Positions 2,368 to 43,636 of a DNA stretch of 64,000 nt are shown here, piece after piece (within the stretch, counting starts at the first letter, position 1; the number at the start of each line of letters is the position of its first letter). Under the pieces are notes generated by a model. The model had not been told where the DNA came from. It saw nothing but the letters and a program-made list of their open reading frames with translations, and ran no database searches. Made by a program: the position numbers and the translations under genes. The DNA comes from Vampirovibrionaceae bacterium NZW_1234 (GTDB lineage: Bacteria; Cyanobacteriota; Vampirovibrionia; Vampirovibrionales; JAGQHJ01): the NCBI GenBank assembly GCA_041697335.1, contig JBGUGD010000039.1:32001-96000 (forward strand), read 5' to 3'.

Positions 2368-3075
2368 GTGGCAATGGCTTGGTTTAATCGCATCGGGTTG
2401 AATTCACCTTCTTTATTCTCCGACAGGATGACGAGAGATGTGACCATGCCCATGTCTCCACAAGCCAAACGCATTCAATGGTTTATGAAACGCGGCATGG
2501 ATATTCTTTTAAGTGGTGGCGGGCTGATTCTGCTGAGCCCGTTTTTAGCCCTCGTCATGCTGCTTATCAAGCTGGACTCTCCAGGCCCATGCTTTATCCG
2601 ACAACGCCGTGTCGGGTATTTGGGACAAGAGTTTTATATGTATAAGTTTCGAAGCATGGTGGCCGATGCCGATCGCTATCGCCAGGCCTTATTGGCTCAA
2701 AACGAAACCAACGATTTTATGTTCAAAATGAAGGCCGATCCCCGCATCACGCGCGTGGGCAAATGGATCCGCCGCTATAGCATTGATGAGCTGCCTCAGC
2801 TGATTAATGTGCTGAAGGGGGAAATGAGCCTCGTAGGACCTCGCCCTCCCTTGCCCGATGAAGTCTGTCGCTATCGTAAATCCTACCTCAAACGCCTGGC
2901 CACGGTTCCAGGTCTCACCTGCAACTGGCAGATCAGTGGGCGCTCGGACATCCAAAATTTTGATCAGGTAGTTGAATTGGATGTCAGCTATATTCGCTCA
3001 TGGTCTTTGTGGCGGGATCTGGAAATTCTGATAAAAACCGTTCCCATCGTGATTAGTGCAAAAGGTGCCGCATAA
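2368..3075 (+). CDS. Priming sugar transferase (WcaJ/CpsE-like, undecaprenyl-phosphate glycosyl-1-P transferase domain)
   Basis: KRGMDI, YKFRSM, DPRITRVGKWIRRYSIDELPQLINVLKGEMSLVGPRP. Start may lie a few codons downstream. Confidence 0.93.
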   Translation: MAMAWFNRIGLNSPSLFSDRMTRDVTMPMSPQAKRIQWFMKRGMDILLSGGGLILLSPFLALVMLLIKLDSPGPCFIRQRRVGYLGQEFYMYKFRSMVADADRYRQALLAQNETNDFMFKMKADPRITRVGKWIRRYSIDELPQLINVLKGEMSLVGPRPPLPDEVCRYRKSYLKRLATVPGLTCNWQISGRSDIQNFDQVVELDVSYIRSWSLWRDLEILIKTVPIVISAKGAA

Positions 3076-3099
3076 AAAAACGGAGTTGGAAGACACGCT

Positions 3100-3891
3100 A
3101 TGCTTCTACACACAACGTCATCTCGACCACGTGCGATTAAGCAATCGCTTTTGGAAGCTCCCTTGTTGAGCATTATTCCCTGGTTGGCAGAGCCGCTGTA
3201 TGCGGCATTTTATCCACCCAATTATCATCAAACCGATCGCCTGCCGGATGCCCCAGCCTATGCATTTTTAACAACGCGTCTCATGGAATTGCGCACGGAT
3301 ATGGAGCAGGCACTGTGTGTCAACGTCGCTTCGACAACCCGAGGCAAAAGCACCTCTTGGATGGTCATGAAACTGGTTCATTTTTTATCTCGCCATCATC
3401 AACGCGTACTGGTTATGGATGCGGATTTTTCATGGCCCACCCTGCACCTGGCCTTTGATCTGGCTTATGATTCGGGATTATCCTTTGTTGACTTGCTGAG
3501 GCATTGCCATCCGGAAATGAACTGGGCTGAAATGCCAAACGACTTCTGGAGGCGTTTTCAAGAACAATGCCATTCATCTTCAGATCTCCCCGGGGTCACC
3601 TTACTGCATAACACCCCGGCCTTAAAATCCGCAACCGAAGCCCAGCAAACGCTGACAGACAATTTGGCATTGCTGCCATCTTTGCTGAGTTATCTTAAAC
3701 CCCATTTCGACTGGATTGTGATGGATACCGGCCCCCTGACCGCAACCCCCGAGAATCGAGAACTCTGTGCCATCGGGGATGGGCTGGTTTTGCTTGAAGA
3801 TCGGCTCTTCAATGAAAAAGAACGCCGAGCCCTGCATCAAATCCTCTTAGATGACAATATTCATGTCCTGGGTCGCGTAAAGCGTCACTAG
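3100..3891 (+). CDS. CpsD/CapB (BY-kinase)-like or MinD-like P-loop protein
   Basis: RGKST P-loop-like motif, RVLVMDAD (Walker A'), FDWIVMDTGP (Walker B). Follows the priming transferase. Confidence 0.65.
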   Translation: MLLHTTSSRPRAIKQSLLEAPLLSIIPWLAEPLYAAFYPPNYHQTDRLPDAPAYAFLTTRLMELRTDMEQALCVNVASTTRGKSTSWMVMKLVHFLSRHHQRVLVMDADFSWPTLHLAFDLAYDSGLSFVDLLRHCHPEMNWAEMPNDFWRRFQEQCHSSSDLPGVTLLHNTPALKSATEAQQTLTDNLALLPSLLSYLKPHFDWIVMDTGPLTATPENRELCAIGDGLVLLEDRLFNEKERRALHQILLDDNIHVLGRVKRH

Positions 3892-8641: not shown

Positions 8642-10785
8642 ACAACCTCGTCCTGATAAATGTCCTGGGACCAAACCGTTTCCTCGTGGCTGCCCCAATT
8701 AACCAAAACAGCTCCGATAATAGGCAACTGCCCATAACCCAAAGATCCAAGAATCCGTGTCACCTTGCGTCGAGACATAGCCGCATCCACCATTACCACC
8801 AGGCCCTCGATTTTGCCATCCAAATAGAAAAACGAATCCGAGTCCAACATCGCAGGCAACTCCAGAAATACCCAGTCAAACTGCTGCTTCAACGCGGCCA
8901 TCAACTCAGAAAACGCCTCGGTCCGGAACCACTCAGAAGCCTTCAGCATCTCCACCGATACCAAATGCTGAGGCAAGCGGGCATCGAAGTACTGTGAAAC
9001 CCAGGCTTGGGCATCCCAACCCGTCGTTTCGGCACGGGCCTGAGTGAATGCTTTCACCATGTCCAAAAAGGTCTCTGAACTCCGCTCAACAATGGCATCC
9101 GAAACCGTGAGCGTAAAAATCCGCTCACCTCGTTCCTTTAAGAACCGAGCCCAAAGGGGCACGACGGCCAAATTTTGCATCTCCAACTCATGAATTCCGG
9201 CAAAGGCCAGAATACGTTGATCTGCGTATCGAGAGCGCAGCTTGATATTGAGAACCCACTCTCGAAAGGCGGCAGAATGGGCTTCCGTTATCGAAGCATC
9301 CAAAGACGAGGGTGTATGGAGGTTAACTCTCGGAATCACAGCCAAAACGGGGGCTTGGAGCATTCGTGCCACAAACGCCGGGAAAACTTGGTCATCTTGA
9401 CATCGGCTCACAATCAAGATGCCTGCCATGAGTAAAAATGCGCTGATCGTCATCACACCCGACAATACATGAAGGCGGTTGGGAAACACCGGCTCAAATG
9501 GTCGGCTGGGAGCCTCCAAAACTCTAAGACGCCGATGTTCAACAGCTAAAATAGCCGCTTCCGTGTCATGGAATTTCTGATTCAAAACCGCCAACTTCCC
9601 AGCCTGAGCTTGGCGTTCCTCTTCAAGCGCCTTCAGCGTTAACTCTGTCTGACTGAAGTGTTGAACCTGCGTTTTTAACTGGCGAAGCTGGGCTTCCAGA
9701 ATTTGGCTTTGACGCGTTAGGCCTGACATTTCACTCTTGAGCATGACAAACCGTGTCAAGATTTCCTGGCGAGCCTCTTTCCATACTGCCCAATCGGCCG
9801 TCTTCAATCGAGCTTGAAGGCTCGCCAGGTCCACCTTGGGTGGTGGCTCAAACAAACTCACCGACTGGACCTGCTGTTCTGACGGGAGTGGGGGTGTCAA
9901 TAATGGCGAATAGGTCAACGGATAGATTCCCTGAGCAATCTTGGGCTTGGTGGTCACCGGCATACTGAGAAGCCAGGGATGCAACTGATCCAAGTCCTGA
10001 AGGGCCATTTTGGTGGAGTGGCCCAAAGCCTGCCGGGTGTGCTGAAGCTTGGTCTGGGTCAACGCCAATTTAACCTGAACCTGGTTCAACTGCTGATGAA
10101 CACTGGCCATTTCAGAGGCCAGGGCCTTGGCCGTTACCTGCACATCAGTGATATGCTCAGACGCTTTAAACGCCGCAATGGACTGATCCATGGCGGCCAA
10201 TTTATCATAAGATCGGGCCAGCCGATGCTCTAACGCCCCTCGCAATTCGTTTAAAGGCTCCAGAGCCATCGTTTTAACCAGGGTTTCGTAGTGCTTGAGG
10301 TATGCCTCCAACTGTTTTTGAGCTTGCTCCGGTTGCCGAGCTCGTAAAACTACAGAAACAAGGTTGCTCTCCGGCACTTTGTAAACCTGAATTCTATCTT
10401 CCGGCGGTGTCTTCCAGTCAGGATAAATCACTCTAAACAAGCGATTTCCCTTCAAAAGCCGCACCGTCTCTTCTGAAACACTGAGCCCCTTGGCTCGTAA
10501 CACGGGATTAGCCGACTCGGCAAAAACTGTCTTCGATTCGTACCACTCCGGGTAAACACGCCAAATCACAACCCCACTTACCACCAGCACGATGAGTAGC
10601 GAGCAGAACAAAAAGGCCCGGTAGCGGCGGAAGCAATCTTTCAGCCACCATTGTTCCAGTCCCAGAATATAGGCACTACAACGGCCATAATCAGGCAACG
10701 CCATCAAATACCCCTTTGATTGGCCTGCACATACGCGTCCCTGTTTTTCTCTTCTCGTGGACGACGACACTTCACGTCTCGCCAT
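8629..10785 (-). CDS. GumC/Wzc-like polysaccharide co-polymerase with degenerate kinase-like C-terminal domain
   Basis: N-terminal TM, long coiled coil, Pro-rich segment plus second TM (PFEPVFPNRL...), APVLAVIP, FDWVFLELP. No clear Walker A. True start may be downstream. Confidence 0.8.
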   Translation of the reverse strand: MARREVSSSTRREKQGRVCAGQSKGYLMALPDYGRCSAYILGLEQWWLKDCFRRYRAFLFCSLLIVLVVSGVVIWRVYPEWYESKTVFAESANPVLRAKGLSVSEETVRLLKGNRLFRVIYPDWKTPPEDRIQVYKVPESNLVSVVLRARQPEQAQKQLEAYLKHYETLVKTMALEPLNELRGALEHRLARSYDKLAAMDQSIAAFKASEHITDVQVTAKALASEMASVHQQLNQVQVKLALTQTKLQHTRQALGHSTKMALQDLDQLHPWLLSMPVTTKPKIAQGIYPLTYSPLLTPPLPSEQQVQSVSLFEPPPKVDLASLQARLKTADWAVWKEARQEILTRFVMLKSEMSGLTRQSQILEAQLRQLKTQVQHFSQTELTLKALEEERQAQAGKLAVLNQKFHDTEAAILAVEHRRLRVLEAPSRPFEPVFPNRLHVLSGVMTISAFLLMAGILIVSRCQDDQVFPAFVARMLQAPVLAVIPRVNLHTPSSLDASITEAHSAAFREWVLNIKLRSRYADQRILAFAGIHELEMQNLAVVPLWARFLKERGERIFTLTVSDAIVERSSETFLDMVKAFTQARAETTGWDAQAWVSQYFDARLPQHLVSVEMLKASEWFRTEAFSELMAALKQQFDWVFLELPAMLDSDSFFYLDGKIEGLVVMVDAAMSRRKVTRILGSLGYGQLPIIGAVLVNWGSHEETVWSQDIYQDEVVYSS

Positions 10786-37403: not shown

Positions 37404-37439
37404 AAAAGCCAGGTTTACATGAAATAAACCTGGCTTTTT
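37404..37439. terminator. Bidirectional terminator closing the MNIO operon
   Basis: AAAAGCCAGGTTTA / TAAACCTGGCTTTT 14-bp inverted repeat. Confidence 0.85.
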
Positions 37440-37445
37440 CAGTAT

Positions 37446-38354
37446 CTATAAAGGTTCCTCACCAGAAACTGCCCCTATAAAGCAAGACCCCAGCACAATA
37501 CCATTCTCAAGTAGCTGAGTGAGCATGGGGATAAATTGGCTATAGAAAAGTCCTGGGGTCAACCCGGGCATCTGCGACGCGATGTGGGAATAGACCGGCT
37601 GAATCGAATCCAAGTATGACAAAAGGGCATTAGGGTGGGACTGAAGCGAATTCAGCCAAGCTGCCAGAACCGAAGAAACCTCAAACGATCGGCAGCGAAA
37701 CGGTCTGTCAAACGACCGATACATCCATACCAAGGTTGATCGGGGGGATAAAAAATCGGGCGAAAGCCTTGTTTCAGGATCAGATTTTAACAGTGAGACC
37801 AAAGAAGGAATGGGATAGGACAACTCCAATAGCGCTGAGGCCTGATTCAGGACCGGTACCATCAATGCAAGCTGGTCCTCACTTTCTGGCATAACCTTCA
37901 AGCGAGATTCCGGATAAGTTGTATCTGGATAACTAAGTAGACAAGCCTGTACCCACTCATAACGTGCTAAATCAGGCAAATAGGGCCAACGTTCCTGAAC
38001 AACCGCATGCCCGGCTAAATAATCAGCAAAAGCTTCCCCAACGGACATCAACCGATAAGAGCGGCTGGCCGGAGTCCAATCATAATCCTCGAATACCTCA
38101 TCCCAAACATCAACCAATACCATTGCCGTCAAGGAAAAAATTGACCTTAAGGTTTGTTCTACATTGGCCTGGAGCATATAAGCATATTGACGGTAATGCT
38201 CAAGTACCGGCTGCTGCATCGCCTCTTTTTCTCTATCTGATAGAGATGATTGAGCCCAAAAAACAGCAAGAGCATCTGATGACTTGAGTGCGAGCTTGCC
38301 CTCAGAGGTTGTCATCAGTTGCTTAAAGATCTGTTGAAATTCTTGAAGCGTCAT
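37446..38354 (-). CDS. DUF2063/HvfC-like MNIO partner protein
   Basis: LQEFQQ.F N-terminus, Y..ML...LRSIF..T, LPDLARYEW; ATGA overlap with the DUF692 gene. Confidence 0.78.
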   Translation of the reverse strand: MTLQEFQQIFKQLMTTSEGKLALKSSDALAVFWAQSSLSDREKEAMQQPVLEHYRQYAYMLQANVEQTLRSIFSLTAMVLVDVWDEVFEDYDWTPASRSYRLMSVGEAFADYLAGHAVVQERWPYLPDLARYEWVQACLLSYPDTTYPESRLKVMPESEDQLALMVPVLNQASALLELSYPIPSLVSLLKSDPETRLSPDFLSPRSTLVWMYRSFDRPFRCRSFEVSSVLAAWLNSLQSHPNALLSYLDSIQPVYSHIASQMPGLTPGLFYSQFIPMLTQLLENGIVLGSCFIGAVSGEEPL

Positions 38355-39241
38355 TTTTGGTGAACCCCGAGCGGAAGGCTCACACCGTTGGATTTTCCTG
38401 ATGAATGACAGATAGAACGAATTTGATCCAATTCAGAGAGTAACGAATCAATGGGAGGCAGATTGTCATCTCGTTCAAGTAATATACCTTTGGCACAAGT
38501 CCGCTGAATTACCACTGCAAGTAAATCCCATACTTCCGAACAGACCGGCTCGGCATGCGTGTCGACAACAAGGTGCTTCTGTCGCAAGTGACCTGCCACG
38601 TGAAGCTGAACCACACGCTCAAGAGGGATAGCATTTAGAAATTCACCTGGGTCATAGCCATGATTTTGAGCATTAACAAAAATGTTATTCACATCAAGCA
38701 GCAAACCACAGTCGGAACGCTCGAGAATTTCAGCTAAAAACTGAGCCTCGGTCAGCTCTTGTGGCCCCATGGTTGCATAATACGAAATGTTTTCAATTAA
38801 AAACGGACGTTCCAGCCGTTCCTGAACAACCCGGATACGAGGCACAATATGATGCACCGCCTCCCAGGTAAACGGCAACGGAAGCAAGTCGTTCAAATAA
38901 ACACCATCCACGGATGAAAAACAGAGATGATCGCTAAACCATGGCGGATCAATGCGCTGAAATAACATGGCCAAATCCCGGAGATATTCTTCGGACAGCG
39001 GATCAACACTTCCGATGGAGAGATTAACGCCATGGGACACCATGGGGAACCCATAACTCCTGGCCTCTTCCAGCATCCAGATACTGTGTCCACCTTTGCC
39101 CATAAAATTTTCAGGCACAATCTCCAGCCAGTCAATGGTTGAGCGATGAGCCATGATCTCATCGAACAACCCATGTCGCAACCCCAAGCCAACACCAAGG
39201 TGCGGAAGATGCCTCATTTGCGTTTTAAAAAGACTCTCCAC
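38351..39241 (-). CDS. DUF692 multinuclear non-heme iron oxidative enzyme (MNIO; HvfB/BufB/MbnB family)
   Basis: GVGLGLR, WLEIVPENF, HGVNLSIGS, SDHL, IENI, LLLDVNN, QLHVAGH, DTH, LLERD. Confidence 0.95.
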   Translation of the reverse strand: MESLFKTQMRHLPHLGVGLGLRHGLFDEIMAHRSTIDWLEIVPENFMGKGGHSIWMLEEARSYGFPMVSHGVNLSIGSVDPLSEEYLRDLAMLFQRIDPPWFSDHLCFSSVDGVYLNDLLPLPFTWEAVHHIVPRIRVVQERLERPFLIENISYYATMGPQELTEAQFLAEILERSDCGLLLDVNNIFVNAQNHGYDPGEFLNAIPLERVVQLHVAGHLRQKHLVVDTHAEPVCSEVWDLLAVVIQRTCAKGILLERDDNLPPIDSLLSELDQIRSICHSSGKSNGVSLPLGVHQK

Positions 39242-39319
39242 AAAAACACCTCACAACAGTGACCCTGCAATTTCATTGTCCTTCAGCACACCCGAGAAAG
39301 CAATAACGGCCGGTGGCTA

Positions 39320-39353
39320 AAAACCCTACACCAGATAAGTGGTGTAGGGTTTT
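39320..39353 (-). terminator. Intra-operon hairpin between precursor and MNIO
   Basis: Perfect 14-bp stem AAAACCCTACACCA / TGGTGTAGGGTTTT, 6-nt loop. Confidence 0.7.
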
Positions 39354-39407
39354 AGACGAATTCACCTGCCTGTTGTTGCTAAAAACAGTGCAGACAGATG
39401 GTGAAAA

Positions 39408-39866
39408 TTAGTGCGCTTTTTTAGCGGCGCACTTTTTTTCCATGGATTTGGCTGCAGCACATCCTTTATCAGCATTCTTAACGGCTGCACACTTTTTCTC
39501 GACATGCTTGCCAGCAGCACATTTTTTCTCAGCAGACTTGCCGGCGGCGCACTTTTTCTCGGCAGTTTTAGCAGCGGCACATTTCTTTTCGGATTTTTTA
39601 GCGCCACACTTGGAGCCACACTTGTGCTCGGACTTTTTGGCGCCGCACTTGGAACCACATTTGTGCTCGCTCTTAGAACCACAAGAGCCTTTACCACACG
39701 CAGCATCGCCACCCTTTTCAGCAATCAATTGGCTGTTGGGGATTTCGCTCATCTGAAATAAACCGGACATGGAAGCATCTTCGGCCATGGCCATAGAGGA
39801 CAACATACCAGCACCCAATAACGACATACCCAAGGCTAACGAAGCGGCCTTTTTGGACTTTTTCAT
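39408..39866 (-). CDS. Putative MNIO RiPP precursor (HvfA/oxazolin-like): Sec signal plus 12 Cys in Lys-rich repeats
   Basis: SD AAGGAG; MKKSKKAASLALGMSLLGAGMLSSMAMA signal; ACGKGSCG, 2x SEHKCGSKCGAKK, 6x [ED]K[KG]CAA; directly upstream of DUF692. Confidence 0.88.
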   Translation of the reverse strand: MKKSKKAASLALGMSLLGAGMLSSMAMAEDASMSGLFQMSEIPNSQLIAEKGGDAACGKGSCGSKSEHKCGSKCGAKKSEHKCGSKCGAKKSEKKCAAAKTAEKKCAAGKSAEKKCAAGKHVEKKCAAVKNADKGCAAAKSMEKKCAAKKAH

Positions 39867-39922
39867 GGAATTGCTCCTTTTCAAAACTGTGAAATACTAC
39901 TACTTTTACTCTACAGGACGTA

Positions 39923-39944
39923 ATACTCCCCCTGTTGGGAGTAT
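39923..39944. promoter_or_regulatory. Palindromic operator resembling CsoR/RcnR-family sites
   Basis: ATACTCCC-cctgtt-GGGAGTAT, about 57 nt upstream of the precursor ATG. Confidence 0.5.
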
Positions 39945-40109
39945 CACTAAAATACCATATTTTTTGGGTTCTCCCGCTTCATAGGCTTAGAGGAATATTC
40001 TATCTAAGCCTACATTTCAGCGCATCAAGACGGTGTTTTTCCTGGCTTTTCAGCTATAATAGAGGGCCCTTCCTGTCTCATTATTTACCAAATAAAAGGA
40101 ATCACCATT

Positions 40110-40553
40110 ATGTCCCAAGTCACTCTGAACAATGCCCCGGACCTTCGAAGCAGTTATCCCAGAAGTCCCAATGATCTGGTGGGGGACTATATTTTACTGG
40201 GTCGAATTCTTGATAAATGCCGAGCCGTTCTTGCTGGAACAAATGGAGAGTATAATTATAACTGTCCGCTGGATCGACGGTTTTTCGACTTCACTGGAGT
40301 AGATGCCAACGCGTTCAAAGACCAGGTTGCCCAAGGAAAAACCGATGAGGAGATGCTCGCCTGGGTCAAAGCCAATAGTGCCCCCAGAAGTGAAGATGAA
40401 ATTCTCGCATGGAGCCATGAAAGTCGCTGGGCTCAACCTACAGAACCGGCCATGCGCGCCCACTTTGAACGAACACGTCGGGAAATAGCTCCTGACAGGC
40501 CTTACATCCAATCCTGGTTCCAGTTACTCGATACCGAAGAAGGTCGTTACTAA
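40110..40553 (+). CDS. DUF5069-like protein
   Basis: DLR..YPRSP, LGRILDKCRA..AGT.GEY.YNCPLD..FF.F.G, DEEMLAWV. Confidence 0.72.
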   Translation: MSQVTLNNAPDLRSSYPRSPNDLVGDYILLGRILDKCRAVLAGTNGEYNYNCPLDRRFFDFTGVDANAFKDQVAQGKTDEEMLAWVKANSAPRSEDEILAWSHESRWAQPTEPAMRAHFERTRREIAPDRPYIQSWFQLLDTEEGRY

Positions 40554-40632: not shown

Positions 40633-43398
40633 TTAAGAAAACGTCACCAGCTTCTTTACACCATCAACCGCCATCGCCTTAAGCAAATGGTAGAGCGATG
40701 CAAACTGTTGCCGGTTGTAACCGGCAGTTGCGGAGTCAACCAATCCCAAAATGGCATTATTACGACGCCGTGCATTTTTCAACATCGTCCCCAATTCGTC
40801 TAACGTGCATTGTCCGGCATCGGGTGTATCGGAGTTGTCAATCAAACGTTTTGCCACTTGAGCAGCTTCTCTGCTAAAGCGATGCCCTACTTCCTGCGAG
40901 AAAACCCTGGCTGCATCATCCAACTGGAACTGGGTCCTCATATCCGAGGGATAGGACTTGGCAGAAGGAAACCGAGAGAAGCCTCGCATCGAATCGTTAT
41001 GAACCGGATCTTTTTGAAGAAACTCCGGTTGCTCCAAAAGTTTCTCAAACGCATCATCAAGTTCTTGGCGGGTTGGCAACCCCTCTTTCACTGTTCCATC
41101 AGGTTGTTGAATTTTTAACGTGGTCACTAAACCAACCCGACGCGCTGTTTCCGCATCAAGCCGATAACCTGGCGTATTTAACTGCCAGCCCAGCACATTG
41201 TTAATCAGCTTTTTAGACCCGTTGGCCAACCATTTAAAGTTTGGCGGAAATTCATTAAAATACTTGTCCAAATCACCAATGCGCTGCTTGCCGTTCAGAA
41301 TCATGGCATAGGCCAAAGGCTTACCGGCTTTTTGAGCCAAGCGTTCCGTGCCACCCCAGGCAGGAAAGATACCTAAATTCACTTCAGGTAGTGTAAAGGT
41401 GGCTTTATCACATGCAACAATCTCATCGCATGCCAATGCAAGCTCTACACCTCCACCATAGGCATCGCCTTGAACTTTGGCAATCGTCTTAATTTTGGAA
41501 TTGGCAATGGTATCCATCACATAGCGGCCCAATTGTACCGCGCGATCAAAGTCTTTAGCATCTTTCAGGTTTTTCAGCTCATCCAGATCAGCGCCGCCAG
41601 AGAATACCTTACCACCATTGGTTTCGAGGACAATGGCTTTAATCTTATCCGGTTGTTGGTTCGCCTCTTCGACAGCCCGCTTCAAATCCAACAAGGTCTG
41701 AGAATCCAACGTATTGAAGTTATTCCCACCCATAAAGTTTTGTACTTTATCGATAGTGATGGTTTGGACCCCCGTTTTTGGATTAAAGCTGGTGGATACA
41801 TGGCTGACCTTCATTTTGTCAGAACTAAGTTCAGGGACTCGGAACGTCTCACCATAGCGTGTGCGAATGGACTCTAACGCAGAAGCCACCATGGCAGTAT
41901 GACTCAGCGGCTTTTTTGATTTTCCGAGCGACAGCCAAGAGGATTTTGGTGCTGGGCTATCTTGCTGCTGCATCCATTGAAACGGCCTAAAAGACCAGCT
42001 AAAACCTACCTGGACAATATTATCGACATCTTTGGCGTCACATAAACCTTCATCCACAATCTGCATGGCAGAGGCACAAAGAGCACCGCGAAGTCGATCT
42101 CCCACAAGCTTTTCCAACGCCTTTTTCTCCGCCGGTGTTTTGGGTTCAGGCTTATCCAATTTCGTCATACCATAGGGGAAATATTCTGCTTCAGCTTCCA
42201 GCTTCTTAATTTCCAGATCCAGTCTATCTACACCCTGCTTTTTCTGGTCTAATTGGTGCTTTTCTCGAAGCGCTTGCTTCTCAGAGTATGGTGCCTTCGA
42301 TTTCTCGAGGTTGTACTCCAGTAGAGCGACATCATACTCCCGCTGCTTAGCAGCTCGATCCTCACGAAGCTGCTTTAAGGGTCCACGCTTGATACCCTGA
42401 ACCCGTTCAAATTCTTTTTGAAGCAACTCGGAGACCTTGTAATAGGGGCCCAACTCTTCCATATTTTTGGCAATTTGTACTCCTAAATCACCATATTTCT
42501 TGAAGAGTTTAAAGGGCGGCATCAATTTTTCTTCGGCCACAACAGGCATATCTGCCAAATTGCCCCACAGAATCTTGGAAGCTATTTTATCAATGGTTTT
42601 TGGCCCAGCCAGTCCTTCTTCATAAAGCCGCATTGCTTCGGTAGCCACTGTAATCAACAAACGATTGGCGACAAATCCGGCGGAGTCCTTCTTCACCAGA
42701 ACCGGAATTTTTCCGACAGCTCTGGCATATTTCATGGTTTGCTCAACCACCTCGGGCTTGGTTACACCAGGAATAGGAACAACTTCCACCAACAGGTTCT
42801 GACGCGCAGGATCAAAGTAATGAAGCCCAATAGCACGCTCAGGATGCTTTAGAAGCTTGGCTACTTCCGAGACGCGTAACGAAGATGTGTTAGTTGCAAT
42901 TATAGTATCTTGATCAACACGGCTTTCTAGGTTCTTCAGGGTCTGCTGCTTCAAAGGCAAGTTTTCATTAATCGCTTCAATGACCAGACCCACCGAAGGA
43001 AGATCTTCACGTCGATAGCCTCCTTGTTCTGGAGTTAGGCTGAGACGCTTACTATCTAATGCACGGCCTTCGGTCTCCTTGGTAGCACGAAAGTACTCTC
43101 CAGGCTTAATAACGCCTTTAGAAGCACCAATTGCCATTTCGCGGCGCGCTTCAAATACAGCATTCAGAGCCACCTCTTCGGACATATCAGTCGTCAGACG
43201 ATTAAAACCGGCAGTAGCAGCATTTTGCATAATGCCTTGTCCCATTTTGCCGTTGCCGCCTAAAATGAGGACATATCGATCTCGGCGCATGGCCTCCAAC
43301 GAGCCAGGCTGAACCGTAAAGCGCCCAAAGCGCAATGCCTTAGAACCTCTAGCAATTCTCACCTTGGAAAACCCATCTGATTGAGGCTCTAGGAGCAT
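40633..43398 (-). CDS. 3-hydroxyacyl-CoA dehydrogenase / enoyl-CoA hydratase fusion (dehydrogenase N-terminal)
   Basis: GGNGKMG, VIEAINE, ATNTSSL, GLHYFDP...LVE, GFVANR; C-terminal FSGGADL, GGGVELALACD, LPEVNLG..P.WGGT. Start uncertain (43398 vs 43551). Confidence 0.88.
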   Translation of the reverse strand: MLLEPQSDGFSKVRIARGSKALRFGRFTVQPGSLEAMRRDRYVLILGGNGKMGQGIMQNAATAGFNRLTTDMSEEVALNAVFEARREMAIGASKGVIKPGEYFRATKETEGRALDSKRLSLTPEQGGYRREDLPSVGLVIEAINENLPLKQQTLKNLESRVDQDTIIATNTSSLRVSEVAKLLKHPERAIGLHYFDPARQNLLVEVVPIPGVTKPEVVEQTMKYARAVGKIPVLVKKDSAGFVANRLLITVATEAMRLYEEGLAGPKTIDKIASKILWGNLADMPVVAEEKLMPPFKLFKKYGDLGVQIAKNMEELGPYYKVSELLQKEFERVQGIKRGPLKQLREDRAAKQREYDVALLEYNLEKSKAPYSEKQALREKHQLDQKKQGVDRLDLEIKKLEAEAEYFPYGMTKLDKPEPKTPAEKKALEKLVGDRLRGALCASAMQIVDEGLCDAKDVDNIVQVGFSWSFRPFQWMQQQDSPAPKSSWLSLGKSKKPLSHTAMVASALESIRTRYGETFRVPELSSDKMKVSHVSTSFNPKTGVQTITIDKVQNFMGGNNFNTLDSQTLLDLKRAVEEANQQPDKIKAIVLETNGGKVFSGGADLDELKNLKDAKDFDRAVQLGRYVMDTIANSKIKTIAKVQGDAYGGGVELALACDEIVACDKATFTLPEVNLGIFPAWGGTERLAQKAGKPLAYAMILNGKQRIGDLDKYFNEFPPNFKWLANGSKKLINNVLGWQLNTPGYRLDAETARRVGLVTTLKIQQPDGTVKEGLPTRQELDDAFEKLLEQPEFLQKDPVHNDSMRGFSRFPSAKSYPSDMRTQFQLDDAARVFSQEVGHRFSREAAQVAKRLIDNSDTPDAGQCTLDELGTMLKNARRRNNAILGLVDSATAGYNRQQFASLYHLLKAMAVDGVKKLVTFS

Positions 43399-43636
43399 TG
43401 ATGTATCAGATACAGAATTATTTTTCAGGCCTTTCGCAACCCCCTGCGCAAATAAAAGCCTCCCCTTCGCTTGAATGTCCACGATGCATAGCCTCCCCAA
43501 AAACTGTGTATATTCTGTTATGACTTTTTCATTATCTGTAATCAATCTCAAAACGAAAGTCGCTCGTTAAGAGTTGTTACAGACCGATGTATTTTCCTGA
43601 GCCTCGACGCCAAAGAAAGAAACTCAGGCGTTCCAC

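Follow-up and report, generated by a model that had tools for sequence, protein, structure and literature searches.

A three-gene operon of probable Lys-Cys captophorin type in a likely member of the Vampirovibrionia

Gene content and organisation of the locus

The window, that is the whole stretch of 64,000 nucleotides analysed from contig JBGUGD010000039.1 of Vampirovibrionaceae bacterium NZW_1234, contains three open reading frames at positions 37446-39866, all on the minus strand. In the direction of transcription these encode a Cys-rich precursor (A), an enzyme of the MNIO (DUF692) family with intact ligand columns (B) and a partner that has a DUF2063 domain as well as a predicted RRE fold (C). 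The last two genes are coupled by an ATGA overlap, the set is closed by a terminator, and the arrangement recurs in related genomes. Together the three genes probably form an operon of the Lys-Cys captophorin type, with a predicted Cu-binding 5-thiooxazole product exported by the Sec pathway. An initial annotation had placed three co-oriented genes here, for an exported Cys/Lys-rich precursor, a DUF692 enzyme and a DUF2063-like partner joined by ATGA and followed by a terminator, and all of these were found where it had put them.

The precursor gene (39408-39866, minus strand; 152 amino acids) starts with ATG, 7 nucleotides downstream of a Shine-Dalgarno sequence, AAAGGAG, at 39874-39880 (minus strand). 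By inspection and hydropathy, the protein begins with a Lys-rich, basic segment followed by a hydrophobic core and, up to residue 28, an A-M-A motif, so that residues 1-28 are predicted to form a Sec-type signal cleaved after A-M-A. The predicted mature part has 124 residues, a mass of 12,612 Da, 29 Lys and an isoelectric point of 9.4. It opens with a short leader, LFQxxE..LIAE, of which the LFQxxE-type motif is recognisable in 21 of the 26 lineage precursors listed. The 12 Cys residues (57, 62, 70, 74, 83, 87, 96, 106, 116, 126, 136 and 146) lie in a DAACG-KGSCG pair, two EHKCG-SKCG units and six units of 10 residues that hold a single Cys (EKKCA in five, DKGCA in one), and nine of the 12 are preceded by Lys. 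At the DNA level the repeats appear as tandem units of 39 nucleotides (2.1 copies) and 30 nucleotides (3.5 copies).

The MNIO gene (38351-39241, minus strand; 296 amino acids) has a GTG start with GAGGTG upstream. The profile search for DUF692 and DUF2063 proposed in the initial annotation identified the enzyme as a member of PF05114 (E 1.2e-101). It also passed the model for the bufferin maturase BufB, NF050167 (313.8 against a cut-off of 310), scored far below the cut-offs for MbnB (56 bits), ChrH (50 bits) and ApyH (112 bits), and matched the structure 3BWW (E 1e-55). The metal-ligand motifs had been described as intact, and indeed all twelve conserved columns are present: H70, D104, H105, E150, D183, N186, H214, H218, D227, H229, E256 and D258. 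We take these His, Asp, Glu and Asn columns to be the iron ligands.

The ATG of the partner gene (37446-38354, minus strand; 302 amino acids) overlaps the TGA of the MNIO gene (TCAT at 38351-38354), indicating translational coupling, and a 15-bp hairpin resembling an intrinsic terminator (37404-37438, minus strand; fold z = -5.1) closes the operon. Taken alone, the partner scored 20.1 bits against DUF2063, under the cut-off of 27.2, and its sequence retrieved nothing useful from the PDB. The designation as DUF2063-like is nonetheless borne out by its relatives and its predicted fold. DUF2063 matched 25 of the 28 aligned partners at E <= 0.001, and the sole find of the profile of related partners in the PDB was NGO1945 (3DEE, E 1.6e-7). 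The AlphaFold model (pLDDT 91) gave three matches with E <= 0.001, namely TglI and NGO1945 (8HI7, 8HCI, 3DEE), and aligned with 3DEE and TglI over 232-308 columns. As the initial annotation had noted, neither a DoxX nor a sigma factor gene adjoins the operon: the genome's three DoxX matches lie elsewhere, on other contigs, and its 23 sigma-family matches are all outside the window.

Related loci and a second operon in the genome

PF05114 is present in 30 of the 61 genomes searched, that is in this genome and in 29 of 60 related ones. The initial annotation had made its reading depend on the precursor being conserved next to DUF692 in relatives, and a signal-bearing Cys-repeat gene lies directly upstream of the MNIO gene in 25 of the 29 related loci (24 identified by script and one by reading). 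Of the remaining four, L014 has a DoxX gene there, L024 shows nothing within the flank, L026 has a transposase-like open reading frame in place of the precursor gene (2459-3424) and L029 has a leader-bearing gene whose body is free of Cys. At L014 (1-3212) the MNIO-partner pair follows arsenite-transporter-like and DoxX-like genes, as judged by eye, and no precursor was found between them.

Two of the 25 upstream precursors are of the Cys-Lys type (L003, L004) and the remaining 23 of the X-Cys-Gly/Ala type. In 24 lineage precursors the residue after Cys is Gly at 115 and Ala at 38 of 164 sites (together 153), which agrees with the FonBC requirement for a small residue there (10.1101/2025.11.18.689057), and the residue before Cys is Lys at 95. 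The Lys-Cys-Ala repeat is a common local variant, since 5 of these 24 precursors carry two or more such units. It also occurs in 4-5 database homologues, and the close homologues P0004 and P0005 consist mostly of xxKCA units. The precursor is less unusual than the initial annotation had it. Three related precursors with the same leader (L008, L017, L031) pass the curated HvfA domain model NF050137. Another, of 216 amino acids (L025, 708-1358), is very acidic and carries an internal duplication through which the leader motif is present twice. About a dozen of the related operons (L005-L008, L010, L011, L013, L015-L018, L025) have an exported YceI-like fourth gene downstream of the partner, two of them confirmed as PF04264, and many lie behind an ileS-like gene; the literature search returned no paper on both MNIO and YceI.

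The cluster is divided in G003, a genome from the same family. The orthologous precursor, with its Cys residues, lies beside the same divergent DUF5069 gene as in the window and on a different contig from the MNIO genes, while the gene ahead of the MNIO encodes a similar signal and leader together with an acidic, Cys-free body (L029 1403-1819 and L087 1489-1878, both minus strand). Any modification in G003 would therefore have to occur in trans.

Among named matches of the window MNIO, the best was a Vampirovibrionales metagenome-assembled genome (71% identity), followed by Myxococcota and others at about 35-53%. A quick tree, from which two duplicate rows were dropped, grouped the enzyme into a clade whose 29 rows all belong to the order or class of the window (SH-aLRT 96). 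Since no photosynthetic reaction-centre gene (PF00124) was found in the 94.75%-complete genome either, the host is likely a member of the Vampirovibrionia, non-photosynthetic relatives of the cyanobacteria, in agreement with the earlier guess.

A second MNIO, 54% identical to that of the window, is encoded on contig C16. At L066 (5298-8824), the only CsoR-family gene of the genome is directly followed by this operon, with a precursor, the MNIO, a DUF2063 partner that scores above the cut-off and an AhpC/TSA gene behind it. The precursor combines a CxxxxCxxxC head with Ser-Cys-Ala repeats, and two paralogous operons in one genome allow a comparison of cross-specificity. The CsoR-family protein shows the same pattern of Tyr-Cys, His, Cys and Glu as Cu(I)-CsoR (PMC4235346), and the position of its gene gives indirect context only for a link of these operons to copper. 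CsoR together with MNIO or DUF692 was not found among the papers listed in the literature search. In the order as a whole, the CsoR-family protein (L110-L129) occurs in 20 of 49 genomes and is well conserved, mostly without the RLxR motif. A perfect palindrome resembling a CsoR operator (C16:33541; L066, about 9535-9560) is located between convergent genes 1.4 kb downstream of the second operon and is possibly a terminator.

Class assignment, proposed chemistry and alternatives

The Lys-Cys/EGKCG captophorins include fontiphorin (FonABC) from Fontimonas thermophila and oxazolin (HvfABC(X)) from Haemophilus influenzae (10.1101/2025.11.18.689057 = PMC13097082; PMC11252979; 10.64898/2026.06.05.730506). 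In FonABC, HvfABC, NgoABC and BufABC, a heterodimer of MNIO and partner oxidises Cys to 5-thiooxazole with a mass change of -4 Da and absorbance at about 305 nm, and the characterised products of MNIO-PME1 pairs are all 5-thiooxazoles and generally Cu-binding (10.1101/2025.11.18.689057). HvfB contains a mixed-valent diiron centre that is attained only with HvfC (10.64898/2026.07.17.739211), and bufferins are exported by Sec and protect against copper (PMC11626156). The initial annotation had pointed to the HvfABC and bufferin layout and to Cys heterocycles as in oxazolin and bufferin. The layout and class stand, while the product, oxazolin included, has been reassigned from oxazolone-thioamide to 5-thiooxazole (10.1101/2025.11.18.689057; 10.64898/2026.06.05.730506).

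The assignment to the captophorins, the class of oxazolin, fontiphorin and the bufferins, holds: the enzyme, the partner fold, the Sec-type leader, the Lys-Cys repeats and the gene order match HvfABC, FonABC and BufABC. As far as sequence can tell, the locus has the features expected of the class. The enzyme belongs to the bufferin/oxazolin-cluster MNIOs, with PF05114 and NF050167 above cut-off and both the metal ligands and the catalytic Asp (D258) in place. The adjacent DUF2063 and RRE partner is recognised through the profile of its relatives and a predicted fold, by a search that does not separate PME type 1 from type 2. The Cys-rich precursor gene directly precedes the MNIO gene, its Sec signal being recognised by sequence pattern. 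The precursor also fits the Lys-Cys category of Gadgil et al., defined by a repeated 5-mer with Lys-Cys, with EKKCA five times, EHKCG twice and GSKCG twice. We regard the locus as a real but uncharacterised further member of the captophorin class, with no sign of a new kind of system.

The window operon resembles FonABC and HvfABC in the order precursor-MNIO-PME1, the Sec-type leader, the first two Cys placed five residues apart and the repeated 5-mers in which Lys-Cys is followed by a small residue; the minimal set of three genes is shared with FonABC. It differs from both in the EKKCA and EHKCG repeats in place of EGKCG, with single Cys residues at 10-residue spacing, in the strongly basic mature chain, in an enzyme that falls below the HvfB-type cut-off and has His and Asp at the equivalents of Arg16 and Phe250, in the absence of DoxX and in the phylum. 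With bufferin 2 of Caulobacter vibrioides (BufA2B2C2; Buf_6/12Cys, Cys-Lys; PMC11626156, PMC12452194) it shares an enzyme of the NF050167 family, an Asp after the catalytic Asp as in Cys-Lys enzymes, the Sec leader and the PME1 partner. Unlike bufferin 2, the precursor has no Cys-Lys dyad and no Pfam or NCBIfam match to the bufferin precursor families (DUF2282, Buf_6/12Cys), and neither SigF/NrsF nor DoxX is adjacent. Methanobactin (MbnABC), chryseobasin (ChrH), pearlin (TglHI) and ApyH belong to the same MNIO superfamily, and the partner fold is shared with TglI, but their precursors and products differ.

More than 20,000 captophorin loci have been catalogued, and the characterised ones named in the cited papers are all from Pseudomonadota. 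The initial annotation knew of no characterised example from this lineage; we likewise found no paper characterising a captophorin of the Vampirovibrionia and none pairing "DUF692" with "Vampirovibrionia". The lineage has nevertheless been catalogued: Dataset S1 of PMC13097082 lists MNIO-PME1 pairs of Vampirovibrio chlorellavorus and Vampirovibrio sp. (WP_303673921.1/WP_303673922.1 and WP_373532323.1/WP_373532322.1) as captophorin loci, a likeness by catalogue entry of the enzyme-partner pair and not by sequence. Their precursors were not found by accession in Dataset S2 of that paper. PMC12452194 reports signal-bearing Cys precursors next to such enzymes, hundreds of them unclassified, and genomes that carry several operons; the parts of its text and two spreadsheets that were covered contain no mention of Vampirovibrio or Melainabacteria. 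Coming from the cyanobacteria's non-photosynthetic sister group, the locus is a compact test case: with a natural Lys-Cys-Ala substrate that has one Cys per ten residues and with non-standard specificity residues in the enzyme, it would show how far the FonB substrate rules reach.

According to those rules, FonBC needs a small residue after Cys and accepts Ala, tolerates Ala, Arg or Thr before Cys, and processes EAKCAEGKCA in vitro (10.1101/2025.11.18.689057). All 12 sites of the window precursor fit the small-residue rule, and we therefore infer the same chemistry, export and copper buffering for this locus. By analogy with HvfBC, FonBC and BufBC, proteins B and C would form a heterodimer in which a mixed-valent Fe(II)/Fe(III) centre would oxidise each X-Cys-(Gly/Ala) by four electrons with O2, at a loss of 4 Da per Cys. 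Conversion of all 12 Cys would lower the mass of the mature chain by about 48 Da, or by about 42 Da if Cys57 and Cys62 form a disulfide like the N-terminal pair Cys38/Cys43 of HvfA (PMC11252979). After cleavage behind Ala28, the unstructured, Lys-rich chain would gather in the periplasm, where its thiooxazole thiols may chelate Cu and buffer copper stress outside the cytoplasm.

Several observations weigh against this interpretation. The precursor had no match to the HvfA profiles NF050137 and NF050188 (E <= 1) and contains no EGKCG; because both profiles failed where a control EGKCG precursor (L061) passed the HvfA-type search (64.6 against a cut-off of 19.5), it does not belong to the curated HvfA/EGKCG family. 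Six of its Cys stand alone at 10-residue spacing, and FonBC leaves a one-repeat peptide unmodified (10.1101/2025.11.18.689057). The enzyme scored 292.4 bits with the HvfB-type model NF003818, below the cut-off of 360; it has Arg-His and Asp-Asp where HvfB-type maturases have Arg-Arg and Asp-Phe, with His23 and Asp259 at the positions equivalent to Arg16 and Phe250 of FonB, positions that were matched by way of the ERDF motif in 3BWW and L061 and not by the FonB sequence itself. As for the second operon, the adjacency of csoR and MNIO was found in this genome alone, in a comparison of match positions across the genomes searched, and the Cys/His fingerprint of CsoR proteins does not predict the metal sensed (PMC4235346).

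The spacing of the repeats raises the possibility that only the tandem Cys-Gly sites (Cys57-Cys87) are converted, leaving the six single Lys-Cys-Ala units in free thiol or disulfide form, with the basic tail as an envelope tether or a plain thiol metal sponge. Two adjacent repeats were needed by FonBC, several natural 5-mers were modified just once (10.1101/2025.11.18.689057), and the tail of the precursor resembles low-complexity Lys/Ala proteins, with a weak H1-like match. We regard this alternative as unlikely, given that EAKCAEGKCA was processed by FonBC, that HvfA (PMC11252979) and FonA (10.1101/2025.11.18.689057) are fully modified across spaced repeats, and that the predominance of xxKCA units in P0004 and P0005 suggests selection on those sites.

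Regulatory sequences upstream of the related operons bear on another alternative, that the role of the modified peptide lies in a general response to envelope or oxidative stress, or in binding a soft metal other than copper, under an RpoE-type sigma factor. A motif of the extracytoplasmic function (ECF) type, GGAAC-N15-17-[C/A]GTC, was present in 14 of 28 upstream regions (those of L006, L009, L012, L013, L015, L017, L018, L020-L023, L025, L027 and L028) compared with a mean of 0.27 in 200 rounds of shuffling, the motif having been set after inspection and the related regions not being independent. The motif is similar to the -35 element of E. coli sigma-E and to the -10 element of Neisseria sigma-E (PMC2893595). 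Within this genome it is also found ahead of several genes whose products appear to be exported (contigs C5, C7, C10, C13 and C30), candidate members of a regulon of an RpoE-like gene on C22 that is followed by a probable anti-sigma gene. Expression of hvf is linked to oxidative stress (PMC11252979), and YceI and AhpC/TSA genes are among the neighbours of related operons. However, the ECF sigma factor SigF also controls copper-induced bufferin operons (PMC11626156), so that ECF control is compatible with a role in copper buffering, and the characterised products all bind Cu. The copy of the motif in the window, TGAAA-15-CGTCT (40028-40052, minus strand), has one mismatch, was matched in 12 of 2000 shuffles in a post hoc count, is a weak lead, and was not seen in the nearest orthologue, that of G003. 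A role in stress response is, in our view, distinctly improbable.

The residues His23 and Asp259, together with the separate clade that the lineage enzymes form in the quick tree, would be in line with a different Cys modification, either an oxazolone-thioamide or a new one. An Asp at the position of FonB residue 250 has been tied to Cys-Lys enzymes (10.1101/2025.11.18.689057). We rejected Asp259 as a marker of a Cys-Lys substrate, the residue after the catalytic Asp varying freely among related enzymes (D, Q, T, L, S, G, F). Because of this variation, and because FonB-F250D still yields thiooxazole, as do the Arg-to-Ala variants (10.1101/2025.11.18.689057), Asp259 and His23 are a curiosity and not a sign of new chemistry, and a different modification is very unlikely.

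That the small gene codes for a low-complexity basic protein of no relation, placed by chance next to an orphan pair of enzymes, as the lack of a curated precursor family match and the separation of the orthologous gene from the MNIO in G003 might suggest, is extremely improbable, given the same leader and Cys motifs before the MNIO in the 25 related loci and the second operon and the frequency of stand-alone precursor genes in MNIO-bearing genomes of the class (PMC12452194).

Candidate control elements and neighbouring genes

The elements that are new here are the position of the second operon by the only CsoR-family gene, the ECF-type motif in half of the regions, a 14-bp hairpin and a non-conserved palindrome resembling a CsoR operator. 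The perfect 14-bp hairpin lies between the precursor and MNIO genes (39320-39353, minus strand; fold of 39262-39407, z = -4.2) and likely favours the precursor mRNA over the enzyme mRNA; in the proposed mechanism it might, less surely than the other steps, keep the substrate in excess in this way. Upstream of the precursor gene, an extended -10-like element, TG-n-TATTTT (39949-39957, minus strand), is a candidate housekeeping promoter that was not listed by a consensus promoter scan of the window. It falls within an 11-nucleotide block, TGGTATTTTAG, that recurs unaltered in the orthologous intergenic region of G003.

Just downstream of this element, straddling the predicted transcription start, is an inverted repeat of 11 pairs (one G-T) with a 6-nucleotide centre, TACT/AGTA arms and C/G tracts (39920-39947). 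Its shape fits a type-2 operator of the CsoR/RcnR family (PMC3902906). It is the only site of its kind in the 3.7-Mb genome and was matched in 8 of 5000 shuffles, with a pattern set after the site had been seen. No such palindrome is found upstream of the csoR and copA genes of the genome or, as an autoregulatory site, upstream of 20 related csoR genes, and it is absent from the other upstream regions scanned and from the G003 orthologue, which has a different, G-U-paired hairpin. The repeat may instead be a stem-loop at the 5' end of the RNA. A CsoR operator as an established feature was rejected, being unsupported beyond this genome, and is kept as a lead only. A second inverted repeat in the divergent intergenic region (39982-40012; 10-bp arms, 11-nucleotide centre) was not seen in G003. 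With no regulator adjoining the operon, regulation in trans is suggested, though less firmly than the chemistry.

It is conceivable, but rather improbable, that both captophorin operons, with Lys-Cys-Ala repeats in the window and Ser-Cys-Ala repeats on C16, are controlled in trans by a CsoR-family sensor through the repeat at 39920-39947, and that the Asp/His enzyme converts up to 12 Cys into a polycationic, envelope-sticking string of thiooxazoles. If true, CsoR control of a captophorin would be seen here for the first time, and the published rule that relates enzyme residue 250 to the type of substrate would be broken.

The divergent gene next to the precursor encodes a DUF5069 protein (40110-40553, plus strand) and is preceded by a TATAAT box at 40055-40060. 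It was considered as a fourth component of the operon and rejected. The family occurs in 45 of the order's 49 genomes, frequently as several copies, and is absent from all 14 control genomes; since among 20 DUF5069 loci fetched the precursor adjoins it only in this genome and in G003, we treat it as a mere neighbour. Beyond it lies a gene for a 972-amino-acid fatty-acid oxidation protein (40633-43551, minus strand), in which the 3-hydroxyacyl-CoA dehydrogenase domain precedes the enoyl-CoA hydratase domain, the reverse of the order in FadB and FadJ.

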